From the NCBI RefSeq assembly GCF_030013205.1, contig NZ_CP122648.1: 64,000 bases of DNA; one strand, written 5' to 3'. The stretch is from Escherichia coli (lineage in GTDB: Bacteria > Pseudomonadota > Gammaproteobacteria > Enterobacterales > Enterobacteriaceae). This document shows positions 17,164 to 42,526 of this stretch, piece after piece. Position 1 is the stretch's first letter. Each line of letters opens with the position of its first letter. Both the position numbers and the translations under genes were made by a program. The notes beneath the pieces are model-generated. The model was not told where the DNA came from and searched no databases. It saw nothing but the letters and a program-made list of their open reading frames with translations.

Positions 17164-18135
17164 ATGAACGACAAAATCAGTCAGGACACGATCAACAAAG
17201 CCCTGTGGGCCGCGTGTGATACGTTCCGTGGCACCATCAGTGCTGATACCTATAAAGACTTTATCCTTACCATGCTGTTCCTTAAGTACATTTCGGATGT
17301 CTGGCAGGATCATTACGATGAATATAAAAAACAGTATGGTGATGCACCAGAACTCATTGAAGCCATGATGGCGAATGAACGTTTCGTATTGCCGAAAAGC
17401 GCCAGTTTCTATGCGCTGTATGAACGTCGTCATGAACCGGGCAATGGTGAGCGCATCGACCAGGCTCTGCATGCGATTGAAGAAGCTAATGGCACCAAAC
17501 TGAAAGACGCCGGGAAAAGCGTGTTCCAGGATATTTCGTTTAACACCGATCGCCTAGGTGAAGAAAAACAGAAGAACACCATCCTGCGTCAGCTGCTGGA
17601 AGACTTTGCCGGTCAAGATCTTAACCTGAAGCCGAGCCGTGTCGGTACGCTGGACGTTATCGGTAATGCCTACGAATATCTGATCAAAAACTTTGCTGCC
17701 AGCGGTGGGCAGAAAGCCGGGGAATTCTATACCCCACCAGAAGTTTCGGACCTGATTGCAGAACTGCTCGATCCGCAACCGGGTGATACCATCTGCGATC
17801 CAGCCTGTGGTTCCGGTTCATTATTGATGAAGTGTGGGCGTAAAATTGTCTCCGGGCATGATAGTCGTAACTATGCATTGTTCGGTCAGGAAGCGATCGG
17901 TTCTGCGTGGTCGCTGGCGAAAATGAATATGTTCCTGCACGGGGAAGACAACCATAAAATCGAGTGGGGCGATACCATTCGTAACCCGAAGCTGCTCGAT
18001 AAAAATGGCGACCTGATGCTGTTTGATATCGTGACCGCTAACCCACCGTTCAGCCTCGATAAGTGGGGCCATGACGAGGCCGAGAACGATAAGTTTGGCC
18101 GTTTTCGTCGCGGTGTACCGCCGAAGACTAAAGGA
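17164..18135 (+). pseudogene. Second type I hsdM-like methyltransferase gene, 3'-truncated (homology lost after ...GVPPKTKG)
   Basis: SAM motif DPACGSGSLL and NPPF present; C-terminal third of HsdM missing; ORF tail after 18135 is non-homologous and a different frame opens. Confidence 0.7.
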
Positions 18136-18136
18136 G

Positions 18137-19471
18137 GTATGGGATGCCTGCGCCAATATGGAGCGCTATATCCAGTACGGCTTTACCCCGCAAGAGCGCC
18201 ACCGTCTGTTTGGTGAGAGCGACTGGGGTCAGTTTGTGCCCCGTGATTTTGCCCATCTGCTTGATCTGCTAGGATCCCCAAACACGGCCGACGCTGCCGA
18301 TAAAAGCCGTGCAGCTGCCGGTAGCCAAGGGCGCACCTTGTTGGCCATTTTGCAGGATGACAAGCTTGATGGTGAGCAGACGGTGGAGGAGGAGAGCGCA
18401 GGCTCCGAGCGCTTTAACAGCGTCATCAACTTCTCCAACTTCTTGCTCCATGTGCTGCGACTCGTGAGCCGCGACCCGGGTGATACGGAGGGGGTGCCGC
18501 TTGATGATAAACAACTGGTCGATCAGTTTGAGCTGCGAGTGATAAGGCAACCGGATCCAGTAGCGGCAGTTCAGCGTTTTATCTATGGCCTGTTAAAGAG
18601 CAAGTATCTGTTTGATCAGTTCATCATCAAGCGCGAGTTTGCCGATGGCAAGGATAGTTGGAGTTTGAAGCGGCTGCACAGGTATTCGGAAAAGAGCGTC
18701 AGTTACATCAATACCTTTGACAAGGATGAAAATGAGAATGGTTTCTCTGGTGTTAACCGGCGGGTCCTGATGTTGCTGTCGGCGTTTCATGTGTCGACCC
18801 CGACCCTGGTTTACAAACATTGGCTGAATGGTGCACTGAGATATCTGTTCGACAATTGTCACCCTGATCAACCGGTGGATGCCGGGGCTTATCTGTCCTA
18901 TCTGGAGAGTCAGGCTCGCCGCTTTGTCTTCCAGCGCTTTTTGGCGCCTGGTGAAGGGGCTTCCTATTACCAGATGCTCTACCTTGATAACGCCCTGTTG
19001 CCCGCCATCAATGTGGATGAGAGTTGGCACAAGGTGATTACATCCAAACTTCGCTTCGGTCATATCGAGAACAACTTTGTCTTCAACTTCCTCGACTATC
19101 TGCTGTGGGTACGAGATCGGAATAGCGACAAAGTTGCTGGCTCCTTTGAGTTCACTTTCCGCAGCTCGGTGGAGCACTTCTCACCCCAGCATCCGATGGA
19201 TGGCTATAAACCGGTTGAGCAGAGTGCACTCCATTCGTTTGGCAACCTTTGCCTTATCAGCCACAGCAAGAACTCGCGCTTGAGTAACTTCCAGCCGCAA
19301 CAGAAGCAGGAGCACTTTGAAGCAAGCCTTGCCAATAACCAGACTGATAGTCTTAAATTGCTTGCTATGATTCGGCTGATGAAAGATAAAGGTCGTTGGC
19401 TGGAAGATGAGATAGCTGTGCATCAACAAGATATGTTGCAGGTCTTACTATCCAATCAAATTCAGCAATAA
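18137..19471 (+). CDS. DUF1524-like (GmrSD C-terminal-type His-Me finger nuclease) region; probably a 5'-truncated gene joined to the hsdM remnant, possibly a stand-alone ~437-aa protein from ATG 18158
   Basis: C-terminal motifs [13 protein letters not shown]...[18 protein letters not shown] resemble DUF1524; no DUF262 DGQQR motif seen upstream. Confidence 0.45.
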
Positions 19472-19645: not shown

Positions 19646-22600
19646 ATGGAGAACATTATGTCGACTGTAGATACCTCTATAGCAGAGGAACTCAATCAAG
19701 GAGGCTCAGATTTTATTCTGACTTCCCTCGAGGCTATGCGTAAGAAGTTATTGGACCTTACGTCTCGAAATCGACTTTTGAATTTCCCTATCACTCAAAA
19801 AGGGTCTTCACTACGTATTGTTGATGAATTACCAGAACAGCTTTATGAAACCCTTTGCTCGGAAATCCCGATGGAATTTGCTCCTGTGCCCGATCCAACT
19901 AGAGCGCAGCTGTTAGAGCATGGCTATCTCAAAGTTGGGCCAGATGGTAAAGATATACAGTTAAGAGCTCATCCTAGCGCTAAGGATTGGGCGCACGTCT
20001 TAGGAATCCGTACAGATTTTGATTTACCAGATAGCCATAAAACGGTTGTTTCTGATTCAGATAGAGAGTTGCTGGAAAAAGCCCATCAGTTTATCTTGCA
20101 ATATGCCCAAGGCCAGAATGGAAAATTAACAGGGATTCGTTCTGAATACGTTAATCAAGGTATAGCTTTGTCAGCGTTGAAGGAGGCGTGCTGCTTAGCA
20201 GGCTATGAAGGGCTTGAGGATTTTGAACGACAGGCAAAGGCTGGGAATGAGATTAGTATATCTTCTTCCAATCCCTCTCATGACGATAATCGGATACAGG
20301 CTCTGCTTTATCCAAATGAACTGGAAGCTTGTTTGCGCGCCATCTATGGTAAGGCTCAAACTGCTTTGGAGGAGAGTGGCGCCAACATCTTGTATTTGGC
20401 GTTAGGGTTCCTTGAGTGGTATGAAAGCGATTCCTCTGAAAAGGCACGTTATGCACCGTTATTTACAATTCCGGTGAGATGTGAACGAGGAAAATTAGAT
20501 CCGAAGGATGGTCTTTACAAGTTTCAACTTTATTACACGGGTGAAGATATTTTGCCCAATCTCTCTTTGAAGGAAAAACTTCAGGCTGACTTTGGCCTCG
20601 CTCTTCCTTTGTTCAATGAAGAGGAAACTCCAGAGTCTTATTTTGCTTCGGTGAAGAAGGTTGTAGAGCAGCACAAACCTAAATGGTCTGTGAAACGTTA
20701 TGGTGCACTTAGCTTGCTCAATTTTGGCAAGATGATGATGTATCTTGACCTCGATCCTGCCCGCTGGCCTTGTGACAAGCGCAATATATTGTCTCATGAA
20801 GTAATTCGTCGCTTTTTCACCAGTCAGAGCTGTGGTCAAGAGAATTCCGGCTTACCTGGTGGCTTCGGTCAGCATGAGTACTGCATCGATAGTTACCCTG
20901 ATATTCATGACAAGGTTCCACTAATCGATGATGCGGATAGCTCGCAGCACAGTGCGTTGATCGATGCTATCCGTGGTCAAAACTTAGTCATTGAGGGCCC
21001 TCCTGGTAGTGGCAAATCACAAACGATCACCAACTTGATTGCAGCAGCTCTGCTCAACGGTAAGAAAGTCCTGTTTGTGGCAGAGAAGATGGCTGCACTG
21101 GAGGTCGTCAAACGTCGCTTGGATCGTGCGGGGCTAGGTCAATTTTGCTTAGAGTTGCACAGTCATAAAACTCATAAGCGCAAGGTGCTGGATGATATTA
21201 ATGCTCGCTTGGTGAGTCAGGCGACCATGCCTACTATGGAAGAGATTGATGCTCAGATTTTGCGTTATGAAGATCTTAAGCAGCAGCTCAATGAATATGC
21301 CGCATTGATCAATAACCAATGGGCGCAAACAGGCAAAACGATCCATCAGATTTTGAGTGGTGCAACCCGTTATCGTCACAAATTAGATATTGATGCAACA
21401 GCACTTCATATCGAAAACCTTTCCGGGAAGCAGTTGGATAAAGTGACCCAATTACGGCTGCGTGACCAAATAGTAGAGTTTAGCCGCATCTACAAAGAGG
21501 TTCGTGAGCAGGTGGGGGCTAATGCAGAAATATATGAGCACCCTTGGAGCGGTGTGAATAACACACAAATTCAATTGTTTGACAGCGCTCGTATAGTCGA
21601 TTTGCTACAAACTTGGCAGACATCAATTATCGACTTTCAACATAGCTATCAAGAATATGTAGATAAGTGGGCGTTAGAAGGCGAAAGCCTTAATACGCTT
21701 CAATATATTGAGCAATTGGTAGAAGATCAGTCGAATCTTCCAGTGTTGTGTGGTTCAGAGCATTTCCCAGCACTTAGTGAGCTAGATTCACCCGATGCCA
21801 TTGCACGGGTGCGTCACTATTTAGATAGGTTCGAGTTGCTACAAGGTCATTATGTGGCCTTGAGCCAGGTTATCGAGCCTCAAAAGCTACGACTTTTAGA
21901 ACAAGGACAATCGTGTGACTTTCCTCGTGAAGAGCTGGAAAAATATGGTGCAGCAGAGGATTTCACTTTACGTGATTTGGTCAGGTGGCTTGAATCCATC
22001 CAATCAATTCATGATGAGTTATCATCTATTTATGCGCAATTAAACGATTTCAAAAATGCTTTGCCAGATGGTATTGCTTCGTATATCGATGATTCGCAAG
22101 CTGGATTGCTATTCTGCTCTGAGTTGTTGTCGATTCTGGGTGCTTTACCGACTGAGCTTATTAGAGTTCGAGATCCTCTTTTTGATGATGATGATATCGA
22201 TGCAGTATTGCGCGACTTAATGTGTCAAATCGAAACATTGCGTCCTTTAAGAGATGGTCTATCTACTTTGTATCAATTGGACCAGTTGCCTTCCCAAGAG
22301 ATGCTCGCGCATGCCGTTGCTGTTATCCAGCAAGGGGGATTATTTGCATGGTTTAAGAGTGATTGGCGTAGTGCCAAGGCACTGCTCATGGCGCAATCTC
22401 GTAAGCCCGACACTAAGTTTGCTGAGTTAAAACGCTGCTCAGCTGATTTGCTCAAGTATTCGGAGCTGTTACAACGGTTTGAACAAAGTGACTTTGGTAA
22501 TCAACTTGGTAATGCATTCCGAGGGTTGGACACCGACTGTGAACAACTCATGTTATTGCGTGATTGGTACAAGAAGGTCCGAGCTTGTTACGGGATAGGT

Positions 22601-25393
22601 TTTGGAAAGCGAGTTGCGATAGGCTCTGGATTATTTAACCTAGATGGTGAGATTATCAAAGGTGTGCATTTAATCGAGAAATCGCAGATTAGCTCAAGAT
22701 TAATGACTTTGGTTAAACGGGTCGAGCACGAGGCTAAGTTATTACCGCGTATTTCTAGCTTGTTGGAAGAACATGCATCTTGGTTAGGTGAGCAAGGTGT
22801 ATTGATGCAATCTTACCGACAGGTGCGGAATACTCTCATTGCCTTGCAGGGATGGTTTATCAATCCAGATATATCATTAGAGCAGATGACTCATTCCTCC
22901 GAGATTTTGCAAAACATAAACGATCTTCAGATATCCCTTGAAAATGACTCGTTACAGTTAGGGGCGTTTTTACAATTAACCCCATTGGCTTGCGGTGCGT
23001 ATAAAAATAATCAACTGACGTTAGACACTATTAACGACACGCTGAATTTTGCCGAGCAACTGGTTGATAAGATAAATTGCGTATCCTTGGCTACCCAGAT
23101 CAGACATTTGGCTAGTGGTAGTGATTACGATTTACTATGTCGTGATGGTGGGGAAATAGTTTCGAAATGGAATGAACAGATTAAAAATGCTGAGTTATAT
23201 GCGCTAGAAACAAAGTTAGAGCGGAGTCAGTGGCTCAAGTCGACTGATGGTTCTCTTAATACATTAATCGAGCGCAACGAAAGAGCAATACAGCAACCCC
23301 GTTGGTTGAACGGGTGGGTTAACTTTATTCGTTGTTACGAGCAGATGGATGAAAACGGATTGCAGCGAATCTGGAGTGCTGTACTTGCGGGCTCGCTCCC
23401 GATTGAAAAAGTTGAATTGGGTTTAGCATTAGCAATTCATGACCAGCTGGCGCGGGAGGTTATTCACATCCACCCTGAATTGATGAGAGTTTCCGGCTCA
23501 CAGCGCAATGCTTTGCAGAAGTCATTTAAAGATTACGACAAAAAACTGATTGAATTACAACGTCAGCGGATTGCAGCAAAAATTGCTTGCCGAAATATAC
23601 CAGAAGGGAATTCTGGTGGTAAGAAAAGCGAATATACAGAACTAGCTTTGATCAAAAATGAGTTGGGTAAAAAAACCAGACATATTCCAATTAGACAATT
23701 GGTTAACCGTGCATGTAATGCGCTGGTTGCAATTAAACCTTGTTTCATGATGGGGCCAATGTCAGCAGCTCATTACCTAGAACCTGGACGAATGGAATTT
23801 GATCTGGTGGTGATGGACGAAGCGTCTCAGGTGAAGCCAGAGGATGCATTGGGTGTCATCGCGAGGGGCAAGCAACTAGTGGTCGTTGGTGACCCGAAAC
23901 AGCTACCACCAACCAGTTTCTTTGATCGAAGTGCCGACGGAGAAGATGACGATGATGCCGCGGCTTTAAGTGATACTGACAGCATTTTGGATGCTGCTTT
24001 GCCACTGTTTCCTATGAGACGTTTGCGTTGGCACTATCGTTCACGACATGAAAAGTTGATTGCATACTCTAACCGCCATTTTTATAACAGTGATTTGGTG
24101 ATATTCCCTTCCCCAAATGCTGAGTCTCCAGAGTATGGGATTAAATTTACCTATGTGTCAAAAGGTCGGTTCTCCAATCAACACAATATTGAAGAAGCCC
24201 AAGCAGTTGCTGAGGCCGTACTTCATCATGCGCAACACCGGCCGGGTGAGTCACTCGGGGTAGTGGCCATGAGTTCCAAGCAACGCGATCAAATTGAGCG
24301 CGCTATCGATGAATTGCGCCGAAATCGCCCTGAATTTAACGATGCAATCGATGGCTTATATGCCATGGAAGAGCCACTTTTTGTGAAAAACCTTGAGAAC
24401 GTTCAAGGGGATGAGCGTGATGTAATCTTTATTTCCTTTACCTATGGACCTTCTGAGCATGGTGGAAAGGTTTATCAACGCTTTGGACCTATCAATTCCG
24501 ATGTTGGCTGGCGTCGCTTGAATGTGCTTTTCACTCGATCAAAAAAACGGATGCATGTGTTTAGTTCAATGCGTTCTGAAGATGTATTGACGAGTGAAAC
24601 CAGTAAACTTGGTGTTATTTCGTTGAAAGGTTTTTTACAGTTTGCCGAAAGTGGCAAACTAGATTCCCTCACAACGCATACCGGCAGGGCTCCAGATAGT
24701 GACTTTGAGGTTGCTGTAATGGAAGCACTCAATCACGCTGGGTTTGAGTGTGAACCTCAGGTAGGGGTTGCAGGATTCTTTATTGATCTAGCTGTGAAAG
24801 ATCCAGGTTGTCCTGGCCGTTACTTAATGGGCATAGAGTGTGATGGTGCGGCTTATCACTCAGCTAAATCTGCTCGTGATCGTGACCGTTTGCGTCAAGA
24901 GGTTCTGGAGCGTTTGGGTTGGAGAATTAGCCGCATTTGGTCCACTGATTGGTTCAGTAATCCTGATGAGGTTCTATCTCCGATTATCCGTAAACTCCAT
25001 GAGCTTAAAACATTGGCTCCAGACGTTGTTGTACCTTCCTATGAATATGTAGAAACGATTGAGTCAAGCGCTGAAGTGGCGTCTGACTCAATTGATTCTC
25101 TTATGCCCAATTTGGGGCTTAAGGAGCAACTTAAGTATTTTGCCACACATGTCATTGAGGTTGAGCTTCCTAATGTTGATGCTGATCGTCGTTTGTTGCG
25201 GCCCGCAATGCTTGAGGCTTTGCTGGAACATCAGCCTTTATCACGTTCCGAGTTTGTTGAACGAATACCTCATTATCTGCGGCAAGCAACAGATGTATAC
25301 GAAGCGCAACGCTTTCTTGACCGAGTCTTGGCATTAATTGATGGCGCAGAGGCTGAAGCGAATGATGCAGCGTTTGAGTCTGAATTGGCATAA
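19646..25393 (+). CDS. Large (1915-aa) DUF4011 / SF1 Upf1-like helicase / Vsr-like (PD-(D/E)xK) endonuclease / DUF3320-type protein; architecture matches the single-gene Hhe-type defence family
   Basis: N-terminal LLDLTSRNRLLNF; Walker A GPPGSGKSQT; Walker B VVMDEASQ; motif III VVGDPKQLPPT; motif VI NVLFTRSKKR; C-terminal GIECDGAAYHSAKSARDRDRLRQEVLERLGWRISRIWSTDW. Start may be ATG 19658 (better-spaced GGAG). Confidence 0.8.
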   Translation: MENIMSTVDTSIAEELNQGGSDFILTSLEAMRKKLLDLTSRNRLLNFPITQKGSSLRIVDELPEQLYETLCSEIPMEFAPVPDPTRAQLLEHGYLKVGPDGKDIQLRAHPSAKDWAHVLGIRTDFDLPDSHKTVVSDSDRELLEKAHQFILQYAQGQNGKLTGIRSEYVNQGIALSALKEACCLAGYEGLEDFERQAKAGNEISISSSNPSHDDNRIQALLYPNELEACLRAIYGKAQTALEESGANILYLALGFLEWYESDSSEKARYAPLFTIPVRCERGKLDPKDGLYKFQLYYTGEDILPNLSLKEKLQADFGLALPLFNEEETPESYFASVKKVVEQHKPKWSVKRYGALSLLNFGKMMMYLDLDPARWPCDKRNILSHEVIRRFFTSQSCGQENSGLPGGFGQHEYCIDSYPDIHDKVPLIDDADSSQHSALIDAIRGQNLVIEGPPGSGKSQTITNLIAAALLNGKKVLFVAEKMAALEVVKRRLDRAGLGQFCLELHSHKTHKRKVLDDINARLVSQATMPTMEEIDAQILRYEDLKQQLNEYAALINNQWAQTGKTIHQILSGATRYRHKLDIDATALHIENLSGKQLDKVTQLRLRDQIVEFSRIYKEVREQVGANAEIYEHPWSGVNNTQIQLFDSARIVDLLQTWQTSIIDFQHSYQEYVDKWALEGESLNTLQYIEQLVEDQSNLPVLCGSEHFPALSELDSPDAIARVRHYLDRFELLQGHYVALSQVIEPQKLRLLEQGQSCDFPREELEKYGAAEDFTLRDLVRWLESIQSIHDELSSIYAQLNDFKNALPDGIASYIDDSQAGLLFCSELLSILGALPTELIRVRDPLFDDDDIDAVLRDLMCQIETLRPLRDGLSTLYQLDQLPSQEMLAHAVAVIQQGGLFAWFKSDWRSAKALLMAQSRKPDTKFAELKRCSADLLKYSELLQRFEQSDFGNQLGNAFRGLDTDCEQLMLLRDWYKKVRACYGIGFGKRVAIGSGLFNLDGEIIKGVHLIEKSQISSRLMTLVKRVEHEAKLLPRISSLLEEHASWLGEQGVLMQSYRQVRNTLIALQGWFINPDISLEQMTHSSEILQNINDLQISLENDSLQLGAFLQLTPLACGAYKNNQLTLDTINDTLNFAEQLVDKINCVSLATQIRHLASGSDYDLLCRDGGEIVSKWNEQIKNAELYALETKLERSQWLKSTDGSLNTLIERNERAIQQPRWLNGWVNFIRCYEQMDENGLQRIWSAVLAGSLPIEKVELGLALAIHDQLAREVIHIHPELMRVSGSQRNALQKSFKDYDKKLIELQRQRIAAKIACRNIPEGNSGGKKSEYTELALIKNELGKKTRHIPIRQLVNRACNALVAIKPCFMMGPMSAAHYLEPGRMEFDLVVMDEASQVKPEDALGVIARGKQLVVVGDPKQLPPTSFFDRSADGEDDDDAAALSDTDSILDAALPLFPMRRLRWHYRSRHEKLIAYSNRHFYNSDLVIFPSPNAESPEYGIKFTYVSKGRFSNQHNIEEAQAVAEAVLHHAQHRPGESLGVVAMSSKQRDQIERAIDELRRNRPEFNDAIDGLYAMEEPLFVKNLENVQGDERDVIFISFTYGPSEHGGKVYQRFGPINSDVGWRRLNVLFTRSKKRMHVFSSMRSEDVLTSETSKLGVISLKGFLQFAESGKLDSLTTHTGRAPDSDFEVAVMEALNHAGFECEPQVGVAGFFIDLAVKDPGCPGRYLMGIECDGAAYHSAKSARDRDRLRQEVLERLGWRISRIWSTDWFSNPDEVLSPIIRKLHELKTLAPDVVVPSYEYVETIESSAEVASDSIDSLMPNLGLKEQLKYFATHVIEVELPNVDADRRLLRPAMLEALLEHQPLSRSEFVERIPHYLRQATDVYEAQRFLDRVLALIDGAEAEANDAAFESELA

Positions 25394-25415: not shown

Positions 25416-25586
25416 GTGACAACTGTCGGACAACGTGAACGCGCAACTCAACAGCGCGTAATCAGGTTTTTTATTGAGGAATTGGGCTATCGTTATCTAG
25501 GCGATTGGCACAAGCGTCCTAACAACCGTAATGTTGAGCCTGATTTGCTCAGTCATTGGTTGATTGACCGTGGTGTTGTGGACTGA
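25416..25586 (+). pseudogene. N-terminal stub (56 codons) resembling a restriction R-subunit-type N-terminus, truncated by IS3-family insertion
   Basis: GTG-initiated ORF VTTVGQRERATQQRVIRFFIEELGYRYLGDW... ends in the TGA formed by the first bases of the IS at 25584. Confidence 0.45.
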
Positions 25587-25613
25587 CCCCACGCCCGTAG
25601 ACAAATTCTGTCC

Positions 25614-26062
25614 TCACGACGAGGCCTGTTCGAAGGCCTCCGGACTGACGCCGCCGAGGTGACTGTGGCGCCGGGCCCGGTTGTAGAACACTTCAATGTA
25701 ATCGAAGATATCCGCCCGGGCTAGATCCCGGGTTTTGTATATTCTCTTCCTGATGCGCTCTTTTTTCAGTGAACTGAAGAACGATTCGGCCACCGCATTA
25801 TCCCAGCAGTTGCCACGCCGGCTCATGCTCGGGACCAGGTTATTAGCCCGGCAGAAGTGCTGCCAGTCGTCACTGCCGTACTGGCTTCCCTGGTCTGAGT
25901 GCACGATGACCTCGCCGTCGGGTTTACGTCGCCAGACCGCCATCATCAGTGCATCCAGCGCCAGTTCGCGTGAGAGAGTGGGCTTCATCGACCAGCCCAC
26001 CACGTTACGGGCGAAGAGATCGATAACCACCGCCAGATACAGCCAGCCCTGCCAGGTGCGGA
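25614..26062 (-). pseudogene. IS3-family transposase OrfB, 3' exon (DDE domain C-terminal part) downstream of intron
   Basis: ...RTWQGWLYLAVVIDLFARNVVGWSMKP...HSDQGSQYGS...GNCWDNAVAESFF...; joins in frame with DVTYI on the other side of the intron. Confidence 0.8.
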
Positions 26063-26113
26063 GTAGAGTAAGAGGCAGGGCGTAGTCGGACTATTTCCCT
26101 GCCTCTCCTCCCC

Positions 26114-26147
26114 GAACCGGACGTGCACCTTTCAGCGCATCCGGCTC
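26114..26147 (-). ncRNA. Group II intron domain V (catalytic hairpin)
   Basis: Minus strand reads GAGCCGGAUGCGCUGAAAGGUGCACGUCCGGUUC, matching the domain V consensus pattern (GAGC...GAAA...GUUC). Confidence 0.8.
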
Positions 26148-26152
26148 TCCAT

Positions 26153-27676
26153 TTAAATGCTGGCGAACGCCATTGCCACTTCTGTAAAGCGCGATGTATA
26201 CGTGTTTCTGGTCTCCGTCCTCAGATAGGGATTACCTTCGGGTAGCCGCCAGCGGAACAGCTTCTTGCCTTGCCCCACCAACCGGTACAGTATTTCGCCG
26301 CTGAGCTTGCCGTGATTGGTTTTACCAAATAAAACCCACGTTTTGCTCTGACCCGGTTTCGGTGATTTACACCACCACCTCATCAGGGAAGCGATACCTG
26401 TACGGTATTTGTGGGCCAGCCAGTGAGCCAGCTTCCAGAACACGACACGGTCGATATAACTGAAGACTTTGGCCTTAAAATCAACGAACTGATAGAACAT
26501 GGCCCAGCCTTTCAGTTTTCGGTTGAGTTGTTCAGCCATATCGACTTTGCTTTCACTGTAGTTGCCTGATAACAGTGCTGTCAGCGATGCGGCGAAGTTT
26601 CTGGCTTTCTCCTGCGGGATCGTTGAGACCACTCGCATCTCGCCATAACGACTGCGTTTGCGAATGATCCTGTGCCCCAGAAAGATAAAGCCGTCATTAA
26701 CATGGGTGATTTTAGTCTTATCCATGTTCAGCCTGAGTTTCAGACTGCCTTTGAGCACACCCCGACACTCCTCCCTGATGGCTTCCGCCTGTGCTTTGGT
26801 GCCTTTGACGATGAGGACAAAATCATCGGCATAGCGGCAGTACGCCACCGCGGGTTTCCACTGCCAGTTTTCTCTGACCGCCGTACTTCGGCCCCGTTGG
26901 ATACTGTTATTCCAGTACCACCGATCTTTTCTGGCTTTCCCGCTCAGGTAGCGCTCATGCAGGTATTGATCGAACTCATTCAGCATGATGTTCGATAATA
27001 GCGGCGATATAACACCGCCCTGTGGCACACCTTCACTGGCCGCCCGAAAGAGACCGACATCGATATGTCCCGCCTTGATGGTTTTCCACAGCAGAGTCAT
27101 GAAACGTGCGTCACTGATCCTGCGGCGTACAGCCTTCATCAGCAGTCGATGATGTACGGTGTCGAAGTAACTGGACAGGTCGCCTTCAATCACCCAGCGT
27201 CCCCGGGTTTCACCACAGTCTGTGAGCTGTAATTTCACCGTGCGGATCGCGTGGTGGACACTGCGCTCAGGCCGGAAGCCATATGAGAGCGTATGAAAAT
27301 CACTCTCCCATATCGGCTCCATCGCCATCAGCATGGCCCGCTGAACAATACGATCCCGCAACGCGGGGATACCCAGTGGTCGCAGTTTGCCGTTGCTTTT
27401 AGGGATGTAAACCCGTCTGGCGGGCAAGGGCTGGTAGTGGCCTGAGAGTAATTCATCCCTGAGGATTTGCAGCTCAACAGCCAGTCTGGCCTGTAGCATT
27501 GTTTTGTTCACGCCATCAACGCCGGGGGTATGGGCCCCCTTTGATGAAAGCGTGATCCGCGCCGCTTCAGCCAGCCATTCTGGTTGTGTTATCAGACGCA
27601 GCAGCCGTTGAATCCGTAGGGACGGATCGGTGGCTGCCCATGTGGCAAGCTTGCGTTGCATTTCGCTGATTATCAA
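26153..27676 (-). CDS. Group II intron-encoded reverse transcriptase/maturase
   Basis: 507-aa ORF with RT motifs incl. YADDFV; no HNH-type endonuclease cysteine motifs seen at C-terminus. Confidence 0.85.
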   Translation of the reverse strand: MIISEMQRKLATWAATDPSLRIQRLLRLITQPEWLAEAARITLSSKGAHTPGVDGVNKTMLQARLAVELQILRDELLSGHYQPLPARRVYIPKSNGKLRPLGIPALRDRIVQRAMLMAMEPIWESDFHTLSYGFRPERSVHHAIRTVKLQLTDCGETRGRWVIEGDLSSYFDTVHHRLLMKAVRRRISDARFMTLLWKTIKAGHIDVGLFRAASEGVPQGGVISPLLSNIMLNEFDQYLHERYLSGKARKDRWYWNNSIQRGRSTAVRENWQWKPAVAYCRYADDFVLIVKGTKAQAEAIREECRGVLKGSLKLRLNMDKTKITHVNDGFIFLGHRIIRKRSRYGEMRVVSTIPQEKARNFAASLTALLSGNYSESKVDMAEQLNRKLKGWAMFYQFVDFKAKVFSYIDRVVFWKLAHWLAHKYRTGIASLMRWWCKSPKPGQSKTWVLFGKTNHGKLSGEILYRLVGQGKKLFRWRLPEGNPYLRTETRNTYTSRFTEVAMAFASI

Positions 27677-28332
27677 AGGTCTTCACCTCGTTAGGTCAGT
27701 TAATTCACGTCGTAAACACATTCAAACTGCTTCCCTTCGCCATGTAATGGGCTTTCCCCATCGCGGACTACTACGGAAGCTCCGCCAGCCAGCGCGTCAT
27801 CGGAGCCATGCCCCCTTAACATCCGTCGCTGACCTTCCCCGGTTTACCTGCCTGGACTCAGGCATACTGAGGAGGCTGCCCGTCGCACTCTTTATCCTTG
27901 CTTGCCGCAAGTTGGCAGAAGTCAGCAACGCAAGCGTGATAGACGCTGCTGCCCCGGTGTTTCGCATACATGTCAAAACACCTTCGACCGGCAGTGCTTA
28001 CGTATCACTGCCAGTTCCTCCTGCACGGCCTGTCAGATCACGTAGGCCGTGGTGACGTTTTCAACCCACAGAGGCGGATTAACGGGTTCATGTTCTTCAG
28101 CCTTTCAGTACTTAACCTTGAGGATCATCTCGGCTTAGTGATCTCGCCTCAATCCCCGTTGTCAGCGGGTTACATCACCTTGCGGGCATGCCGCAGGTCA
28201 CTGCCGCTCAGGTTCTCCACCGTCACACCCGGTGGGATTGTTGGGTTTCTCATCGTGAGTTACCGGTTCAATATTCCAGACAGATTCGCGGTTCATTTAA
28301 GCATCCATGCCCGCCCTGAACTCCGGGCACAC

Positions 28333-28761
28333 TATAGGTCACATCACCGCACCACACCTGATTTGGCTCGGTCACGGCGAACTGCCGTTCAAGGTAGTTA
28401 GGGATAGCAACGTGCTCATGACCGCCACGCTTATACCGGTGAGTCGGCTGCTGGCAACTGACCAGTCCCAGCTCTTTCATGAGTCTGCCAGCAAGCCAGC
28501 GCCCCATCTGGTAGCCTCTCCGGGTTGCCATTGTGGCGATGCTTCTTGCTCCGGCAGAGCCGTGGCTGATGCCATGCAGTTCAAGTACCTGGCTGCGTAA
28601 TACAGCCCGTCTGCCGTCTGGCTTTTCAGGACGGTTTTTCCAGTATTTGTAGCTGCTGCGATGGACCCCGAACACATGGCAGAGAGTGGCCACAGGATAA
28701 CGCGCCCTGAGTTTCCCGATTATCGAGAACTGTTCAGGGAGTCTGACATCAAGAGCGCGGT
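28333..28761 (-). pseudogene. IS3-family transposase OrfB, 5' part (between IS30 and intron)
   Basis: ...[44 protein letters not shown]...[11 protein letters not shown] then intron 5' end. Confidence 0.7.
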
Positions 28762-29982
28762 TGTAGATTCAATTGGTCAACGCAACAGTTATGTGAAAAC
28801 ATGGGGTTGCGGAGTTTTTTTGAATGAGACGAACATTTACAGCAGAGGAAAAAGCCTCTGTTTTTGAACTATGGAAGAACGGAACAGGCTTCAGTGAAAT
28901 AGCGAATATCCTGGGTTCAAAACCCGGAACGATCTTCACTATGTTAAGGGATACTGGCGGCATAAAACCCCATGAGCGTAAGCGGGCTGTAGCTCACCTG
29001 ACACTGTCTGAGCGCGAGGAGATACGAGCTGGTTTGTCAGCCAAAATGAGCATTCGTGCGATAGCTACTGCGCTGAATCGCAGTCCTTCGACGATCTCAC
29101 GTGAAGTTCAGCGTAATCGGGGCAGACGCTATTACAAAGCTGTTGATGCTAATAACCGAGCCAACAGAATGGCGAAAAGGCCAAAACCGTGCTTACTGGA
29201 TCAAAATTTGCCATTGCGAAAGCTTGTTCTGGAAAAGCTGGAGATGAAATGGTCTCCAGAGCAAATATCAGGATGGTTAAGGCGAACAAAACCACGTCAA
29301 AAAACGCTGCGAATATCACCTGAGACAATTTATAAAACGCTGTACTTTCGTAGCCGTGAAGCGCTACACCACCTGAATATACAGCATCTGCGACGGTCGC
29401 ATAGCCTTCGCCATGGCAGGCGTCATACCCGCAAAGGCGAAAGAGGTACGATTAACATAGTGAACGGAACACCAATTCACGAACGCTCCCGAAATATCGA
29501 TAACAGACGCTCTCTGGGGCATTGGGAGGGCGATTTAGTCTCAGGTACAAAAAACTCTCATATAGCCACACTTGTAGACCGAAAATCACGTTATACGATC
29601 ATCCTTAGACTCAGGGGCAAAGATTCTGTCTCAGTAAATCAGGCTCTTACCGACAAATTCCTGAGTTTACCGTCAGAACTCAGAAAATCACTGACATGGG
29701 ACAGAGGAATGGAACTGGCCAGACATCTAGAATTTACTGTCAGCACCGGCGTTAAAGTTTACTTCTGCGATCCTCAGAGTCCTTGGCAGCGGGGAACAAA
29801 TGAGAACACAAATGGGCTAATTCGGCAGTACTTTCCTAAAAAGACATGTCTTGCCCAATATACTCAACATGAACTAGATCTGGTTGCTGCTCAGCTAAAC
29901 AACAGACCGAGAAAGACACTGAAGTTCAAAACACCGAAAGAGATAATTGAAAGGGGTGTTGCATTGACAGATTGAATCTACA
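28762..29982 (+). mobile_element. IS30 insertion sequence (1221 bp) nested in the IS3-family element
   Basis: Terminal IRs TGTAGATTCAATTGGTCAACGCAA ... TTGCATTGACAGATTGAATCTACA; length as expected for IS30. Confidence 0.9.
28824..29975 (+). CDS. insI: IS30 transposase
   Basis: 383-aa ORF MRRTFTAEEKASVFELWKNGTGFSEIANILGSKPGTIF... Confidence 0.9.
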   Translation: MRRTFTAEEKASVFELWKNGTGFSEIANILGSKPGTIFTMLRDTGGIKPHERKRAVAHLTLSEREEIRAGLSAKMSIRAIATALNRSPSTISREVQRNRGRRYYKAVDANNRANRMAKRPKPCLLDQNLPLRKLVLEKLEMKWSPEQISGWLRRTKPRQKTLRISPETIYKTLYFRSREALHHLNIQHLRRSHSLRHGRRHTRKGERGTINIVNGTPIHERSRNIDNRRSLGHWEGDLVSGTKNSHIATLVDRKSRYTIILRLRGKDSVSVNQALTDKFLSLPSELRKSLTWDRGMELARHLEFTVSTGVKVYFCDPQSPWQRGTNENTNGLIRQYFPKKTCLAQYTQHELDLVAAQLNNRPRKTLKFKTPKEIIERGVALTD

Positions 29983-30239
29983 GCGGCTTTTTTTAATATG
30001 TCCCGTTCGTCGGTAACCCGTTTCAGCTCTTTCTGGAGACGGCGGATCTCGGCCTGAGCATCTGACTGTTCTTTATTAGTGGAAGAATCCGGACCGTACT
30101 TCTTTATCCAGGCATAAAGGCTGTGGGTGGTGATATCGAGACGTGTTGCAACGCTGGCAACAGAATAACCACGATCAACAACCTGTTTGACTGCTTCAGT
30201 TTTAAACTCTTCGGGATAACGCTTACCGCTCATGGGCAC
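29983..30239 (-). pseudogene. IS3-family OrfA (HTH transposase N-terminal protein), 3' end disrupted by IS30
   Basis: MSGKRYPEEFKTEAVKQVVDRGYSVASVATRLDITTHSLYAWIKKY...; ORF then runs into the IS30 terminus. Confidence 0.75.
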
Positions 30240-30927
30240 CTCTCTTTAAGCCATCTTAAATGACTCTGAGGTGTCTGTTAAACCCGTGGCGATTCACGTA
30301 TCGCATTGGGCAAACTAAAGATGTGTATGTCTATTACCCAACTGTGAGAGATACTGAAATTACAACATTTGAAGAAACTCTGGATAACCTCCTACAACGC
30401 CGACGAGCATTGGCCAGAGATATGCTCTGCGCTACTCCCGATTTGAACTGTGCGGATTTTGAGACCATTTTGAAGGGAGCCTAACCGATATGAGCGGCAA
30501 TACTGCCAGTTGCCAAACCTGAAATAACACTTAGCTGTGATGATTCGCTATTACCTACCGATAGCTTCGGAAAACATAAATTAAAAATGCCCAGGGGAGT
30601 ACTATTATCGTTAGCATTACCCGAACGCCGTATTAACGGTTATTTATTGGTAAGTGCTACGTTCCATGGCAAGAGTTCATCAACACGGTTAGCCGACAGT
30701 ATATTGAGTATATGGCGCAGATATGCTTGCGGATTGATACCATTCAGACAGCAGGTCCCGCTCAGCCCGTACAGTAGAGCGCCGTTCACTACCGTAATCA
30801 CTGCCGAAAAACACATTGATTGCCCCTCAATAATCCTGCCGTCAACGTCAAAATTGCTGGTCGGGCTCGACTTATTTAATTGTGTAAACAGGGCCTCTCA
30901 GCGAAGGCCCTTATGCATCACCTGATG

Positions 30928-31359
30928 TTAAAAGTCACTACATCCAAGATGACGTTCAATGGCACCATGCGATTCAATGTAAGCCTGGGCCGTCTGTTCC
31001 AGTACACCAGGCTCAGCGTTGTATGTGTTAGCTGCATCAAATACCAACGACAACACTTCGGGATACACAACCAGATGTGTAACGGAGTTATCTTCATCCA
31101 ATACTTTTCCCCACGCCTGCTCAATTAGATTTCTGAGAACCACCACCTCACGACTCTTACACCAGACATCGTTATTAAGTAGCAGCACCATAAGATAAGG
31201 AGTGGCATCGTTAGCCACAGCTTCCCTACTCCAGAGGTAATATAAAGGGGTGGGCTCGACTGATTTATCTTTACGTCGCTTACACTGCAAATGTTCAGAA
31301 ATTAGTCTATGCAGTTCACCAGTAAAATCAACCATCAGAGAAGGAATTGCCTTATTCAT
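30928..31359 (-). CDS. Hypothetical protein (143 aa), unknown function
   Basis: Uninterrupted ORF only; IS1 remnant inserted ~6 bp upstream of its start codon. Confidence 0.35.
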   Translation of the reverse strand: MNKAIPSLMVDFTGELHRLISEHLQCKRRKDKSVEPTPLYYLWSREAVANDATPYLMVLLLNNDVWCKSREVVVLRNLIEQAWGKVLDEDNSVTHLVVYPEVLSLVFDAANTYNAEPGVLEQTAQAYIESHGAIERHLGCSDF

Positions 31360-31373
31360 ACCAGGGCAATGTA

Positions 31374-32032
31374 GGTAATGACTCCAACTTACTGATAGTG
31401 TTTTATGTTCAGATAATGCCCGATGACTTTGTCATGCAGCTCCACCGATTTTGAGAACGACAGCGACTTCCGTCCCAGCCGTGCCAGGTGCTGCCTCAGA
31501 TTCAGGTTATGCCGCTCAATTCGCTGCGTATATCGCTTGCTGATTACGTGCAGCTTTCCCTTCAGGCGGGATTCATACAGCGGCCAGCCATCCGTCCTCC
31601 ATATCCTGTCATACGCGTAAAACAACCAGCGCCGACGTAACCCCACTGTTCGTCCATTTCCGCGCAAACAATGACGTCACTGCCCGGTTGTATGCATGAG
31701 TTTACCGACTGCGGCCTGAGTTTTTTAAGTGTCGTAAAATCGTGTTGAGGCCAACGCCTATAATGCGTGCACTGGCGCGACATCCGACGCCATTCATGGC
31801 CATATCAATAATTTTCTGGTGTGTACCGGGCTGAGAGGCGGTGTAAGTGAACTATAGCTGCCATGTTTTACGGCAGTGAGAGCAGAGATAGCGCTGATGT
31901 CCGGCAGTACTTTTACCGTTACGCACCACGCCTTCAGTAGCTGAGCAGGAGGGACAACTGATGGAGATGGAAGCCACGGGAGCACCTCAAAAACACCATC
32001 GTACACTAAATCAGTAAGTTGGCACCATTACC
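31374..32032 (-). mobile_element. IS1 copy with ~109-bp internal deletion (659 bp vs 768 bp), insA/insB degenerate
   Basis: IS1 termini GGTAATGACTCCAACTTA... and ...CATTACC; 9-bp target duplication GGCAATGTA on both sides (31365-31373 and 32033-32041); InsB reads [15 protein letters not shown], lacking an internal segment. Confidence 0.85.
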
Positions 32033-33280
32033 GGCAATGTATTATTTAAACTGTAATAATTTAATTTTAGGATGTGTAGCAGCAGCCCGATACAGAGTTG
32101 CAAGGACACACTTTTGCCAGAGGGCGTTACAGGAAAGCTTAATGTTTGATTCTGTATACATAATAAATCACCTTATAGTTACAATAGGTCAAAAACCGCT
32201 GTAGCCAAAGTTACGCTGGCCTGATGCTTTAGTGTCGAACTTCGTCAAATAATCCAGACGTACCAATAAGCGCTGGTACTGCTCTGGGAAATCAGGATCG
32301 TTAATATCCAGGATGTAACGCCCATTAGTAGGGAAATGAACTAATCCCTGGTGATCTTCCAGTTCCAACCCTAAGGCACTGTACCAGGCTCCGGTAATTA
32401 ACCCTCTCAGGGTGTCAGAGCGCTCATAGTCTCCCAGGTGGTAATAGGCGTCTTTGTTAAACAACAGGCAGACGTGATAATGACATTTAAAGGACTGTGT
32501 ATATTCTTTCGCCCAGATAATACAAACCGACGTTGCGTAGGTGCGTTTGCCTTATTGTTTTTTACGGTGTTGATCTGCATTAATTTTCGCATTCAGCGAG
32601 TTACGGAAACGAGATATCTCTCCGGGGATCAGGTTAGGGAAACAGGTAATGGTATCCCCGTTGTCAATCACAGGAGGGTAATGGAGATCCACCCGTATTG
32701 CTGTTATTCTGGAAGTATTTTTAATATTCGTATTGATAGTTCTCAGAGATATATCACACTCTAGATATTTTAATTAAGTATCAGTTCGATATCGGCATAT
32801 TGTACACTACCTCAGGTAGATGATGAGATCAGATACAGGGATCAACTGACGGTGAACGCAGTTCCCACATTTTATCCAGGGCTTACTGCATATTCCCAAC
32901 AGCCATTCGTTAGCCAGGTAGACGAATACCCTTTCCGCTGGTTTTGCTTTCCCATCGAAGGGCCCATACATCATCACGCCCGCGAAACAACCGACGAAAT
33001 AATGCAACCTTCTCGTCGGTGGATAATACGAAAACGCACTGCACAGGGCTCTGCGGTTTACGTCACCATTCAATCCCATGAGCTTCAAGTTATGTTTGCC
33101 CTTAGTGCAGCTAATTCATCATTGTCAGATTTATGAACTATATGCGTTACCTGTACCTGCCCCACGGGGTACCACCACAGAAGATGAAGTGTCATAGTCC
33201 CCTGCGCTGAGGACAAAACTACGCATTAACGACAAATCCACGCGATAACTTACGATGGTTCGGGCATAAGCCCCCGTAAT

Positions 33281-39678: not shown

Positions 39679-39693
39679 GGTAATGACTCCAAC

Positions 39694-40197
39694 TTACTGA
39701 TAGTGTTTTATGTTCAGATAATGCCCGATGACCTTGTCATGCAGCTCCACCGATTTTGAGAACGACAGTGACTTCCGTCCCAGCCTTGCCAGATGTTGTC
39801 TCAGATTCAGGTTATGCCGCTCAATGCGCTGAGTATAACGCTTGCTGATAACGTGCAGCTTTCCCTTCAGGCGTGATTCATACAGCGGCCAGCCATCCGT
39901 CATCCATACCACGACCTCAAAGGCCGACAGCAGGCTCAGAAGACGCTCCAGTGTGGCCAGAGTGCGTTCACCGAAGACGTGCGCCACAACCGTCCTCCGC
40001 ATCCTGTCATACGCGTAAAACAGCCAGCGCTGACGTGATTTAGCACCGACGTAGCCCCACTGTTCGTCCATTTCAGCGCAGACAATCACATCACTGCCCG
40101 GTTGTATGCGCGAGGTTACCGACTGCGGCCTGAGTTTTTTAAGTGGCGGAAAATCGTGTTGAGGCCAACGCCAATAATGCGTGCACTGGCGCGACAT
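39694..40197 (-). CDS. insB: IS1 InsB
   Basis: 167-aa [30 protein letters not shown]... Confidence 0.85.
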
Positions 40198-40391
40198 CCG
40201 ACGCCATTCATGGCCATATCAATGATTTTCTGGTGCGTACCGGGCTGAGAGGCGGCGTAAGTGAACTGTAGTTGCCATGTTTTACGGCAGTGAGAGCAGA
40301 GATAGCGCTGATGTCCGGCGGTGCTTTTGCCGTTACGCACCACCCCGTCAGTAGCTGAACAGGAGGGACAGCTGATAGAAACAGAAGCCAC
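40116..40391 (-). CDS. insA: IS1 InsA
   Basis: 91-aa [46 protein letters not shown]... Confidence 0.85.
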
Positions 40392-40446
40392 TGGAGCACC
40401 TCAAAAACACCATCATACACTAAATCAGTAAGTTGGCAGCATCACC

Positions 40447-41143: not shown

Positions 41144-42352
41144 TCATCGCTGGTTTTCCATAATCTGAGACATCACATAATCCGCCCATGCCTGCATCAT
41201 CGGTATACGCTGATCCAGCAGATCAGTCCGGTGATATGCCGCCTCAACCTTATTTTTCAGCGTGTGGGCAAGCGCCCTTTCCGCCAAATCCCGCGAATAT
41301 CCCTGTTCGCTACACCAGTCCCTGAATGTTGAACGAAAACCATGTGCTGTAGCCACTCGTCCGGGTATATCACTGATGGCCTTCTTTTTACGCAGAAAAC
41401 TCGTCAACACCATATCTGAAAGGATCTGCTGCTTTCTGGGAGAAGGAAACACCAGTTCGTCATGCAGACCACGTATATTTTCCAGAACGTGAATGGCCTG
41501 TCGGGATAAAGGAACACGATGCTGTATCCTGGCTTTCATTCTTTCTGCGGGTATCGTCCATATCCGCTTATGAAAATCAATTTCAGCCCAGCGCATTCCC
41601 CTTGCCTCGCCCGAGCGGGTTGCTGTCAGTATCACCATTAATAACAGTGCCCGGGTAACATTATAAGGTTCATCTGTATACACACTGGTCGCCACAAAAA
41701 GCGGTAACTGCCTCCAGGGCATTGCCGGCTGGTGTTCATCACGTCCTCTTGATTGCTGTGGAAGCAAATGATCAACCACATCAACAGGATTCGCCACACA
41801 AAAACCATGCGCCCAGCCCCACTGCATAACAACATGAATGCGCTGTTTAACCCGGCTTGCCGTTTCTGACAAGGTTAACCAGACTGGACGCAGTGTTTCT
41901 GCCACGTCCGCAGCCGTAATCGAATCCAGCGTTTTTGCTCCCAGTTGAGGAAACGCGTAATTCTCAAGCGTCGATAACCACTGCCTTACATGCTTTGGAT
42001 TTTCCCATCCAGGAGACAATTCTGCATGTACACGCCGGGCTGCATCGGCAAATGTTGGGATAACAACTTTTTCAGCTTCAGCCTTTTTAATCTCCAGAGG
42101 ATCATCACCTGCAGCAAGTTGCTCTCGCATTATCCGGGCAGTACGTGCAGCTTCAGCAATACTGACCTCAGGGTAAGTTCCCAATCCAGCATTACGCCTT
42201 TTTTGTGTCACCGGACTTACATAACGAAAAACCCATTTACCCCTCCCCTTTACTGAAGAAGGATGAAGAGTCAGTCCTGTAATTCCCCCATGGGGCAATG
42301 GTTTGTCATCAGGTTTGATATGCCTTGCTTTAGTATCCGTCAATACTGCCAT
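41144..42352 (-). CDS. Tyrosine site-specific integrase (P4/CP4-type)
   Basis: 402-aa ORF with phage-integrase-like N-terminal region and C-terminal catalytic-domain-like H..R...Y spacing; adjacent to the att repeat. Confidence 0.85.
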   Translation of the reverse strand: MAVLTDTKARHIKPDDKPLPHGGITGLTLHPSSVKGRGKWVFRYVSPVTQKRRNAGLGTYPEVSIAEAARTARIMREQLAAGDDPLEIKKAEAEKVVIPTFADAARRVHAELSPGWENPKHVRQWLSTLENYAFPQLGAKTLDSITAADVAETLRPVWLTLSETASRVKQRIHVVMQWGWAHGFCVANPVDVVDHLLPQQSRGRDEHQPAMPWRQLPLFVATSVYTDEPYNVTRALLLMVILTATRSGEARGMRWAEIDFHKRIWTIPAERMKARIQHRVPLSRQAIHVLENIRGLHDELVFPSPRKQQILSDMVLTSFLRKKKAISDIPGRVATAHGFRSTFRDWCSEQGYSRDLAERALAHTLKNKVEAAYHRTDLLDQRIPMMQAWADYVMSQIMENQR

Positions 42353-42512: not shown

Positions 42513-42526
42513 CCCCCTCACCGCCA
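42513..42526 (+). repeat. attR-like direct repeat of the tRNA-Ser 3' end (ccccctcaccgcca)
   Basis: 14-bp match to 5489-5502 in the same orientation; marks the distal island boundary. Confidence 0.7.

Follow-up and report, generated by a model that had tools for sequence, protein, structure and literature searches.

The window analysed here, 64,000 nucleotides of an Escherichia coli chromosome (contig NZ_CP122648.1, assembly GCF_030013205.1), carries a degenerate IS1 next to a 143-codon open reading frame (ORF), as well as an orphan 62-codon reading frame at the boundary of an IS3-family element. This raises the question of whether the IS1 controls a small gene of its own or whether both reading frames are what remains of larger genes. 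We find that the region is very probably the debris of three separate lesions: a zorD gene cut by an insertion sequence, a YagK/YfjJ-family gene disrupted by IS1, and an IS1 copy that is itself dead. The features around the IS1 are as follows.

30928–31359, minus strand: 143-aa ORF (WP_077881224.1), beginning at ancestral Met46 and comprising the last 143 codons of a 188-codon gene
30928–31373, minus strand: 3' part of the disrupted 188-codon YagK/YfjJ-family gene, from PF11726 and alignment to the 188-aa orthologue
31365–31373: first copy of the target-site duplication, GGCAATGTA, directly abutting the IS1
31374–32032, minus strand: defective IS1 of 659 bp, insA followed by insB, co-oriented with the disrupted gene
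32033–32041: second copy of the target-site duplication, GGCAATGTA, directly abutting the IS1
32042–32161, minus strand: 5' part of the 188-codon gene, with an ATG at 32161 preceded by AAGGTG, 39 codons and then TAA

The ORF at 30928–31359 exists as it was described in a sequence-only reading of this DNA (143 codons, minus strand), but its product, which that reading left as unknown, matches PF11726 with 41 bits against a cut-off of 25.8 (E 2.4e-10, profile positions 27–135 of 170). No NCBIfam match was obtained for it, and RefSeq/PGAP annotates it as a CDS for a YagK/YfjJ domain-containing protein. The domain is incomplete, the first 45 ancestral residues having been split off by the IS1 and a frameshift. 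Strains ET120 and A134_1EC retain an intact 188-aa orthologue, WP_000287905.1, and the window ORF is the counterpart of its C-terminal 143 residues; the reconstructed window protein differs from it at 10 of the 188 residues. The 188–191-aa form is also the common one in protein databases, where it accounts for clusters of 3028 and 193 member sequences. It had further been considered that the 143-codon and 62-codon frames might lack homologues and be non-coding DNA, whereas both have clear homologues, as fragments of genes.

When the IS1 and one copy of the duplication are removed and the DNA is aligned to STEC1590, ET120 and A134_1EC, homology runs unbroken through the insertion point up to the ATG at 32161. 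The site of the duplication and IS1 corresponds to codons 41–44 of the ancestral gene. A 1-bp deletion (TTTAAATTAATA to TTTAAATAATA), 2–4 bp from the duplication, creates the TAA at 32042–32044. STEC1590 has neither the IS1 nor this deletion, and all 188 of its codons are open, of which PGAP annotates only 135. The proposed sequence of events is thus that IS1 would have inserted within codons 41–44, generating the 9-bp duplication, with the 1-bp deletion arising close by; the gene would have been split in two, leaving a 39-codon head, still with its Shine-Dalgarno sequence, and a body of 143 codons whose start is an internal Met with no ribosome-binding site.

The same arrangement had been read as an IS1 lying upstream of a gene, where it may supply or disrupt the promoter. 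The 143-aa ORF would then be free-standing, and the IS1 would control it either through an outward or hybrid promoter or by removal of the native one. The IS1 is in the same orientation, with its end 14 bp from the ATG of the ORF (itself 5 bp from the duplication), and PGAP does annotate the ORF as a CDS; IS1 ends are moreover able to form hybrid promoters. With the IS1 removed, however, the frame runs upstream through 45 more codons that are conserved in three other strains. The ATG proves to be an internal Met, and no Shine-Dalgarno-like sequence is found in the 15 nt that precede it. A promoter and terminator scan of 30200–32900, the result of which was not above shuffled expectation, detected no minus-strand promoter-like site near 31360–31420, at the IS1 end, and Rfam models gave no RNA family match in the region under study. 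Furthermore, residues 13–40, which form helix 1 and strand 1 of the fold in a medium-confidence structure model, would be missing from the 143-aa product. Promoter control of a free-standing gene is hence very improbable. Because the frame continues upstream into conserved codons, with neither a Shine-Dalgarno sequence for Met46 nor a promoter at the IS1 end, the insertion is best read as an intragenic gene disruption and the 143-aa ORF as a pseudogene fragment, rather than as a promoter effect. Read-through transcription of the fragment from the same-direction IS1 may occur. For annotation, this implies a correction: RefSeq CDS WP_077881224.1 represents a fragment of the 188-codon gene.

The IS1 had been described as a 659-bp degenerate copy with perfect 9-bp duplications, and both of its ends and the flush copies of GGCAATGTA were recovered. 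The IRR-side repeat, GGTAATGACTCCAACTTA, lies at 31374–31391 with no mismatches, and the IRL-side repeat at 32015–32032 with three; the IRL of this IS1 carries two changes. The 9-mer is not rare, with three occurrences in the window against 0.67 expected, so that its identification as the target-site duplication relies on its position flush against both inverted repeats and not on rarity. The copy thus keeps the terminal inverted repeats of known IS1 elements (~23 bp, beginning GGTRATG, as judged by alignment over the whole element), the direct duplication of the target (typically 9 bp) and the insA–insB' layout. It differs in length and in coding capacity. Compared with the intact 768-bp IS1 at 39679–40446, to which it is 93% identical, it has lost 16 bp and 93 bp (109 bp), both within insB; the first deletion shifts the frame and the second is in-frame. 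This bears out the estimate that about 35 codons of insB are missing. In contrast, insA had been taken to be out of frame, and its frame is in fact kept but ended by a nonsense change (CAG to TAG) at codon 42. Lacking both the intact insA and insB' needed for the InsAB' transposase and the usual length of ~768 bp, the element is a defective derivative that is unable to transpose on its own.

In the full-length copy, the segments that correspond to the two insB deletions each lie between short direct repeats (GCGCT...GCGCT and GACGG...GACGG), a configuration that would be typical of slippage. The nearest full-length relatives, isoforms annotated as IS1X4-like, are 97–97.8% identical. Of the 14 substitutions relative to the nearest of them, nine fall within the first 88 bp, a clustering more suggestive of a mosaic isoform than of uniform, clock-like decay.

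It had been proposed that the IS1 was intact on insertion and has since decayed where it lies. In 17 porcine ETEC/O139:H1 genomes the doubly deleted form is present once each, always at this locus and nowhere else, an observation that favours decay in place, although a full-length IS1 at this site was seen in none of 5,426 genomes. Candidates H18–H20, which had appeared to carry such a copy, were rejected as unrelated IS1A copies joined by the piece-merging of the search. No intermediate genome was found, either with a full-length IS1 here or with an IS1 but no 1-bp deletion, and for this reason we infer, rather than observe, both the order of the lesions and decay in place.

Alternatively, the IS1 could have arrived with its insB deletions and insA nonsense codon already in place, mobilised in trans by another genomic IS1, in which case the duplication would be uninformative on decay. 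Both inverted repeats are present, and the host chromosomes hold 13–22 other IS1 matches each. The disrupted gene, too, leaves little time for decay since the IS1 insertion, given that it shows no relaxed selection: dN/dS is 0.18–0.20 among the ET120, STEC1590 and repaired window alleles of the 188-codon gene, and the window branch, with 10 synonymous and 7 non-synonymous changes, is no more relaxed than the intact alleles, indicating a recent disruption. The absence of full-length copies from the site in all 5,426 genomes also fits arrival in a defective state. Against this stand the single-copy status of the doubly deleted form and its absence from other places in E. coli genomes, plasmids and metagenome contigs. 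A plasmid search with the IS1 and its flanks returned only full-length IS1 copies of at most 97.8% identity, and a scan of metagenome contigs for the 93-bp-deletion junction (as a 30-mer) gave no match. The insB deletions are, in addition, simple repeat-mediated events that recur independently: an IS1A-like copy on ETEC plasmid NZ_LR883001.1 has the identical 93-bp deletion, and its presence in a different isoform elsewhere marks it as a recurrent, independent event. IS1 transposase also acts preferentially in cis, which disfavours mobilisation in trans. We therefore regard arrival in a defective state as rather unlikely. In situ acquisition of the insB deletions is the simpler reading of these comparisons and a plausible one; the insA nonsense codon and the two deletions between short direct repeats would then, most simply, have killed the element where it now lies.

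The second reading frame lies on the opposite strand, between the IS3-family boundary and the 143-aa ORF.

30297–30484, plus strand: zorD 3' remnant, ZorD residues 1019–1080 of 1080 and the stop codon, from tblastn and PADLOC
30640–30816, minus strand: C-terminal remnant of an IS66-family transposase, 58 aa, PF13817 (DDE_Tnp_IS66_C), E 2.7e-10

This in-frame tail had been considered the 3' end of a lost gene at the IS3-family boundary, which holds, and the gene can now be named: by homology the 62 codons are the 3' end of a type I Zorya zorD. A tblastn search with ZorD of O157:H7 aligned window positions 30296–30481 to residues 1019–1080 with 95.2% identity over 62 aa (E 3.8e-32). At the DNA level, a distant-mode search of E. 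coli genomes showed the tail to be 95% identical to annotated zorD 3' ends in O157:H7. In the O157:H7 strain 17B6-2, the homologous DNA closes an intact zorA1-zorB1-zorC-zorD operon, beyond which come an IS66 remnant, an inovirus-type Gp2 gene, YfjI, an HTH gene and an integrase. Window 30297–30959 is collinear with the corresponding O157:H7 locus (L003, 14001–14660), the tail and its 3' flank being 91–95% identical. The two loci share the stop codon, the 3' spacer and the IS66 remnant, the latter following an intact zorD in O157:H7; the rest of the IS66-family transposase is absent. On the other hand, the window lacks 94% of zorD and all of zorA, zorB and zorC: tblastn with ZorA, ZorB, ZorC and ZorD found nothing else in the window, the 5' part of zorD included. 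The zorA-zorB-zorC-zorD operon context of a type I Zorya system, present at the O157:H7 locus, is thus missing here, and Zorya ancestry is inferred from the 95% identity and synteny with another strain rather than from the context of the window itself.

Profile searches at first suggest another name for the tail. In PADLOC it aligned with the C termini of ZorD models, as well as with that of a single model named DpdE, and the NCBIfam ZorD equivalog gave a weak partial match, the fragment being so short. Since the best PADLOC model is DpdE (PDLC02854, E 6.5e-34), ahead of ZorD (PDLC00632, E 1.2e-24), the tail might stem from a DpdE helicase of the Dpd 7-deazaguanine DNA-modification system. However, on the O157:H7 ZorD encoded within the zorA1-zorB1-zorC-zorD operon, the DpdE model again scores higher than the ZorD models. 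As this is a genuine ZorD, the ranking can be explained by overlap in model naming. The 91–95% identity of the tail and 3' flank to the O157:H7 zor locus likewise argues against DpdE, and we consider such an origin extremely improbable.

If the tail is read as zorD, all that it retains is the last part of SNF2 motif VI (YRIGQTK) followed by the C-terminus of the protein. The full-length SNF2-type ATPase/nuclease core (E651, DEAQ at 730–731) and the N-terminal domain are absent. EcZorD is a protein of 1080 aa whose nuclease activity requires E651 and D730/E731, and the whole Zorya system requires ZorAB (PMC11946911). With only 62 codons, and without the DEAQ box, the ATP-binding residues and the N-terminal half, the zorD tail cannot function. 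A pseudogene otherwise left unlabelled as 'hypothetical, missing N-terminus' can accordingly be recognised as a likely zorD fossil.

The truncation of zorD coincides with the right end of a composite mobile element.

25585–30296, minus strand: IS3-family composite element, its right end truncating zorD, with an IS30 and a group II intron inserted in it
29895–30239, minus strand: IS3-family orfA
25614–26072 and 28268–28693, minus strand: pieces of IS3-family orfB
28757–28787 and 29957–29987: IS30 inverted repeats, inside the IS3-family element
26153–27676: intron reverse transcriptase, inside the IS3-family element
26063–26149: Rfam Intron_gpII match, inside the IS3-family element

The element begins with TGACCCC... 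at 25585 and ends with ...GATTCA at 30296, and the zorD tail starts exactly at this terminal ...CA (30296/30297). The flanking triplets differ (gac versus cgt), so no target duplication is present, and on its left the element borders a fragment resembling HsdR_N, which follows hhe. These observations indicate chimeric junctions, with IS-associated deletion or recombination after insertion. We propose that a type I Zorya system (zorA-zorB-zorC-zorD) and the IS66 remnant once stood here as in O157:H7, that the IS3-family element landed in zorD at codon 1019, and that everything upstream of this codon would subsequently have been lost by such a deletion or recombination, leaving the IS abutting unrelated DNA. 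Other strains have lost zorD at different points. It is cut 7 bp further in, by another IS3-family-like end, in STEC1590 and 171 bp earlier, with an IS3, in CUWW10, and some truncations are deeper still. Strain 23AR0885 had been a candidate for sharing the IS3/zorD junction of the window; its actual junction is 1 bp further in, without an IS.

These lesions lie in the variable arm of a genomic island, delimited as follows.

5415–5502: tRNA-Ser(GGA), one island boundary
41144–42352: tyrosine integrase, beside the 14-bp repeat
42513–42526: 14-bp repeat of the tRNA 3' end, the other island boundary, adjoining the tyrosine integrase

The island spans ~37 kb, is integrated at tRNA-Ser(GGA) and contains the IS1, the split 188-codon gene and the zorD remnant. 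Its cargo comprises a type I restriction-modification system, the Hhe anti-phage gene, several insertion sequences and three YagK/YfjJ-type genes. While the O157:H7 Zorya island adjoins clpA, the window island lies at tRNA-Ser by ghrA and dgcT. Window positions 30240–32300 are found at 100% identity in the chromosomes of the 17 porcine ETEC/O139:H1 genomes, and no genome beyond these covers at least 80% of the interval among the 5,426 complete genomes searched. Relative to both CUWW10 and O157:H7, positions 30960–33186 form an additional segment, which holds the split 188-codon gene, its 204-aa partner as a pseudogene and a fragment of a TOTE primase. The variable arm carries defence cargo, within which the region studied here is probably non-functional debris, presumably not expressed. 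On a small scale, the region illustrates cleanly how defence cargo turns over in an E. coli island: Zorya appears to have been eroded by IS3-family elements, with truncation points that vary by strain, and Hhe and type I restriction-modification occupy the neighbouring space. Known processes of IS-driven defence-island decay suffice for such a history; no new mechanism is implied, and the import beyond annotation is small.

The disrupted gene belongs to a family for which a literature search on YagK/YfjJ returned no functional study. PF11726 is described as inovirus-Gp2/Rep-like, and the 188-codon gene would encode a putative Rep/HUH-like fold, for which HUH rolling-circle Rep and parvovirus NS1 nuclease domains are the structural comparison. 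With the 'inovirus-type Gp2' (YagK/YfjJ) genes of CP4-6/CP4-57-like islands, the window gene shares an above-threshold Pfam match. A phmmer search of 1.84 billion representatives returned mostly fragments of the same E. coli 188-aa protein and only about six distant full-length relatives (31–34% identical, 178–215 aa). The search yielded a thin alignment and a structure model of medium confidence. The subfamily has almost no relatives outside E. coli.

The split gene has a canonical neighbour directly upstream.

32189–32752, minus strand: partner gene of the canonical inovirus-Gp2/YagK-YfjJ type with HYH; here a pseudogene, interrupted by an internal stop and with its 5' end replaced

This partner matches PF11726 (E 6.7e-28) over its C-terminal 91 aa. 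Against the 204-aa WP_000628304.1 of ET120, it shows a Q-to-stop change and a divergent N-terminus; RefSeq records an 'internal stop'. The window gene occupies the same position as WP_000287905.1, directly downstream of the 204-aa canonical Gp2-family gene, but it is IS1-split and frameshifted where WP_000287905.1 is intact. Canonical relatives, the 204-aa neighbour among them, carry H-Y-H, with hydrophobic residues behind it, as well as a Y-x-x-K towards the C terminus. In contrast, the 188-aa subfamily has neither: in its intact alleles as well, P-Y-L replaces HYH, and LEQ-TAQ stands without the tyrosine of Y-x-x-K. The 188-aa gene always lies 27 bp downstream of the canonical 204-aa Gp2/Rep-like gene. 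The subfamily nevertheless evolves under purifying selection (dN/dS about 0.2), so that its intact form may be more than junk. Conceivably, though we put this forward tentatively, the intact 188-aa protein is a non-catalytic partner or regulator of the island Rep-like protein, and the pair would make up a so far uncharacterised module of two genes in E. coli integrative islands. If so, the window shows that module being lost.

The last 62 codons of zorD, the helicase gene of a type I Zorya system, are left in the window as a remnant. Three lineages have zorD cut inside a single 8-bp span, each with a different left-hand partner, and a fourth is cut further upstream:

30297-30304 span (window): left partner is the end of an IS3-family element
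L009 about 7008 (strain 23AR0885): no IS at left; junction 1 bp from that of the window
L002 about 12001 (STEC1590): left partner is another IS3-like end
L004 11832 (fourth lineage, CUWW10): cut 171 bp upstream

Two readings could account for this pattern: a hotspot for insertion, or nested deletions forming a ladder.

To the left of the remnant, the following features are found:

17164-19471, + strand: truncated second hsdM that continues into a truncated GmrSD_C/HNH-type endonuclease ORF, both annotated as partial genes
19646-25393, + strand: intact Hhe anti-phage gene of 1915 aa, with DUF4011, helicase and MTES_1575 nuclease domains
25416-25583, + strand: fragment of 56 codons that looks like the N-terminal end of a type I restriction R subunit (sub-threshold PF04313 match, E 0.0036)

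The PADLOC Hhe model matches along the full length of the 1915-aa product, and this intact gene occupies the place expected for the remainder of Zorya. The PF04313-like fragment, which carries no RefSeq annotation, lies close behind hhe and is truncated where the IS3-family element has its left end. The truncated hsdM and GmrSD_C/HNH-type ORFs lie downstream of an ISKpn26. With respect to model naming, PADLOC PDLC02854 (named DpdE) scores 2435 bits on ZorD of a genuine zorABCD operon, as compared to 1559 bits for the best ZorD model, and could give Zorya helicases a wrong label.

The junction of the 93-bp deletion in the defective 659-bp IS1 is located at 31596/31597. An unrelated IS1A-type copy on the ETEC plasmid NZ_LR883001.1 contains the identical in-frame insB deletion, situated between GACGG repeats; IS1 therefore has a hotspot of recurrent slippage here. 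In the defective copy (window 31374-31461; the left 88 bp in the element's own orientation are 31945-32032), nine of the 14 substitutions that set it apart from its nearest full-length relative, two of them in IRL, lie within the first 88 bp. This clustering suggests a recombinant left end.

In the intact locus (L005 8267-9475), a canonical 204-aa Gp2/YagK-type gene with the HYH motif is followed, after 27 bp, by a 188-aa paralogue that lacks the motif, a tandem arrangement conserved in ET120 and A134_1EC. In the window the two genes are both pseudogenes (32189-32752 and 30928-32161, - strand). The full 188-codon ORF is open in STEC1590 (L002 12625-13191), while PGAP gives the orthologue only 135 aa by placing its start at an internal Met; the shorter annotation appears to come from a wrongly called start site and to have spread through protein clusters.

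Further features of the window are:

32816-33141, - strand: fragment with a frameshift and an internal stop, annotated as TOTE conflict-system archaeo-eukaryotic primase domain
39679-40446: second IS1, intact, splitting a DUF3987 (YfjI-like) gene
50827-51020, + strand: Ysr251, Rfam gathering-level match, 193 bits
8246-8482, - strand: IS102 RNA, Rfam gathering-level match, 73 bits

The primase fragment is flanked by two Gp2-type genes. A CTGGAGCTGG repeat is present on the flanks of the intact IS1, and looks like a 9-10-bp duplication. Both Rfam matches are located away from the region of the defective IS1 and the zorD remnant.
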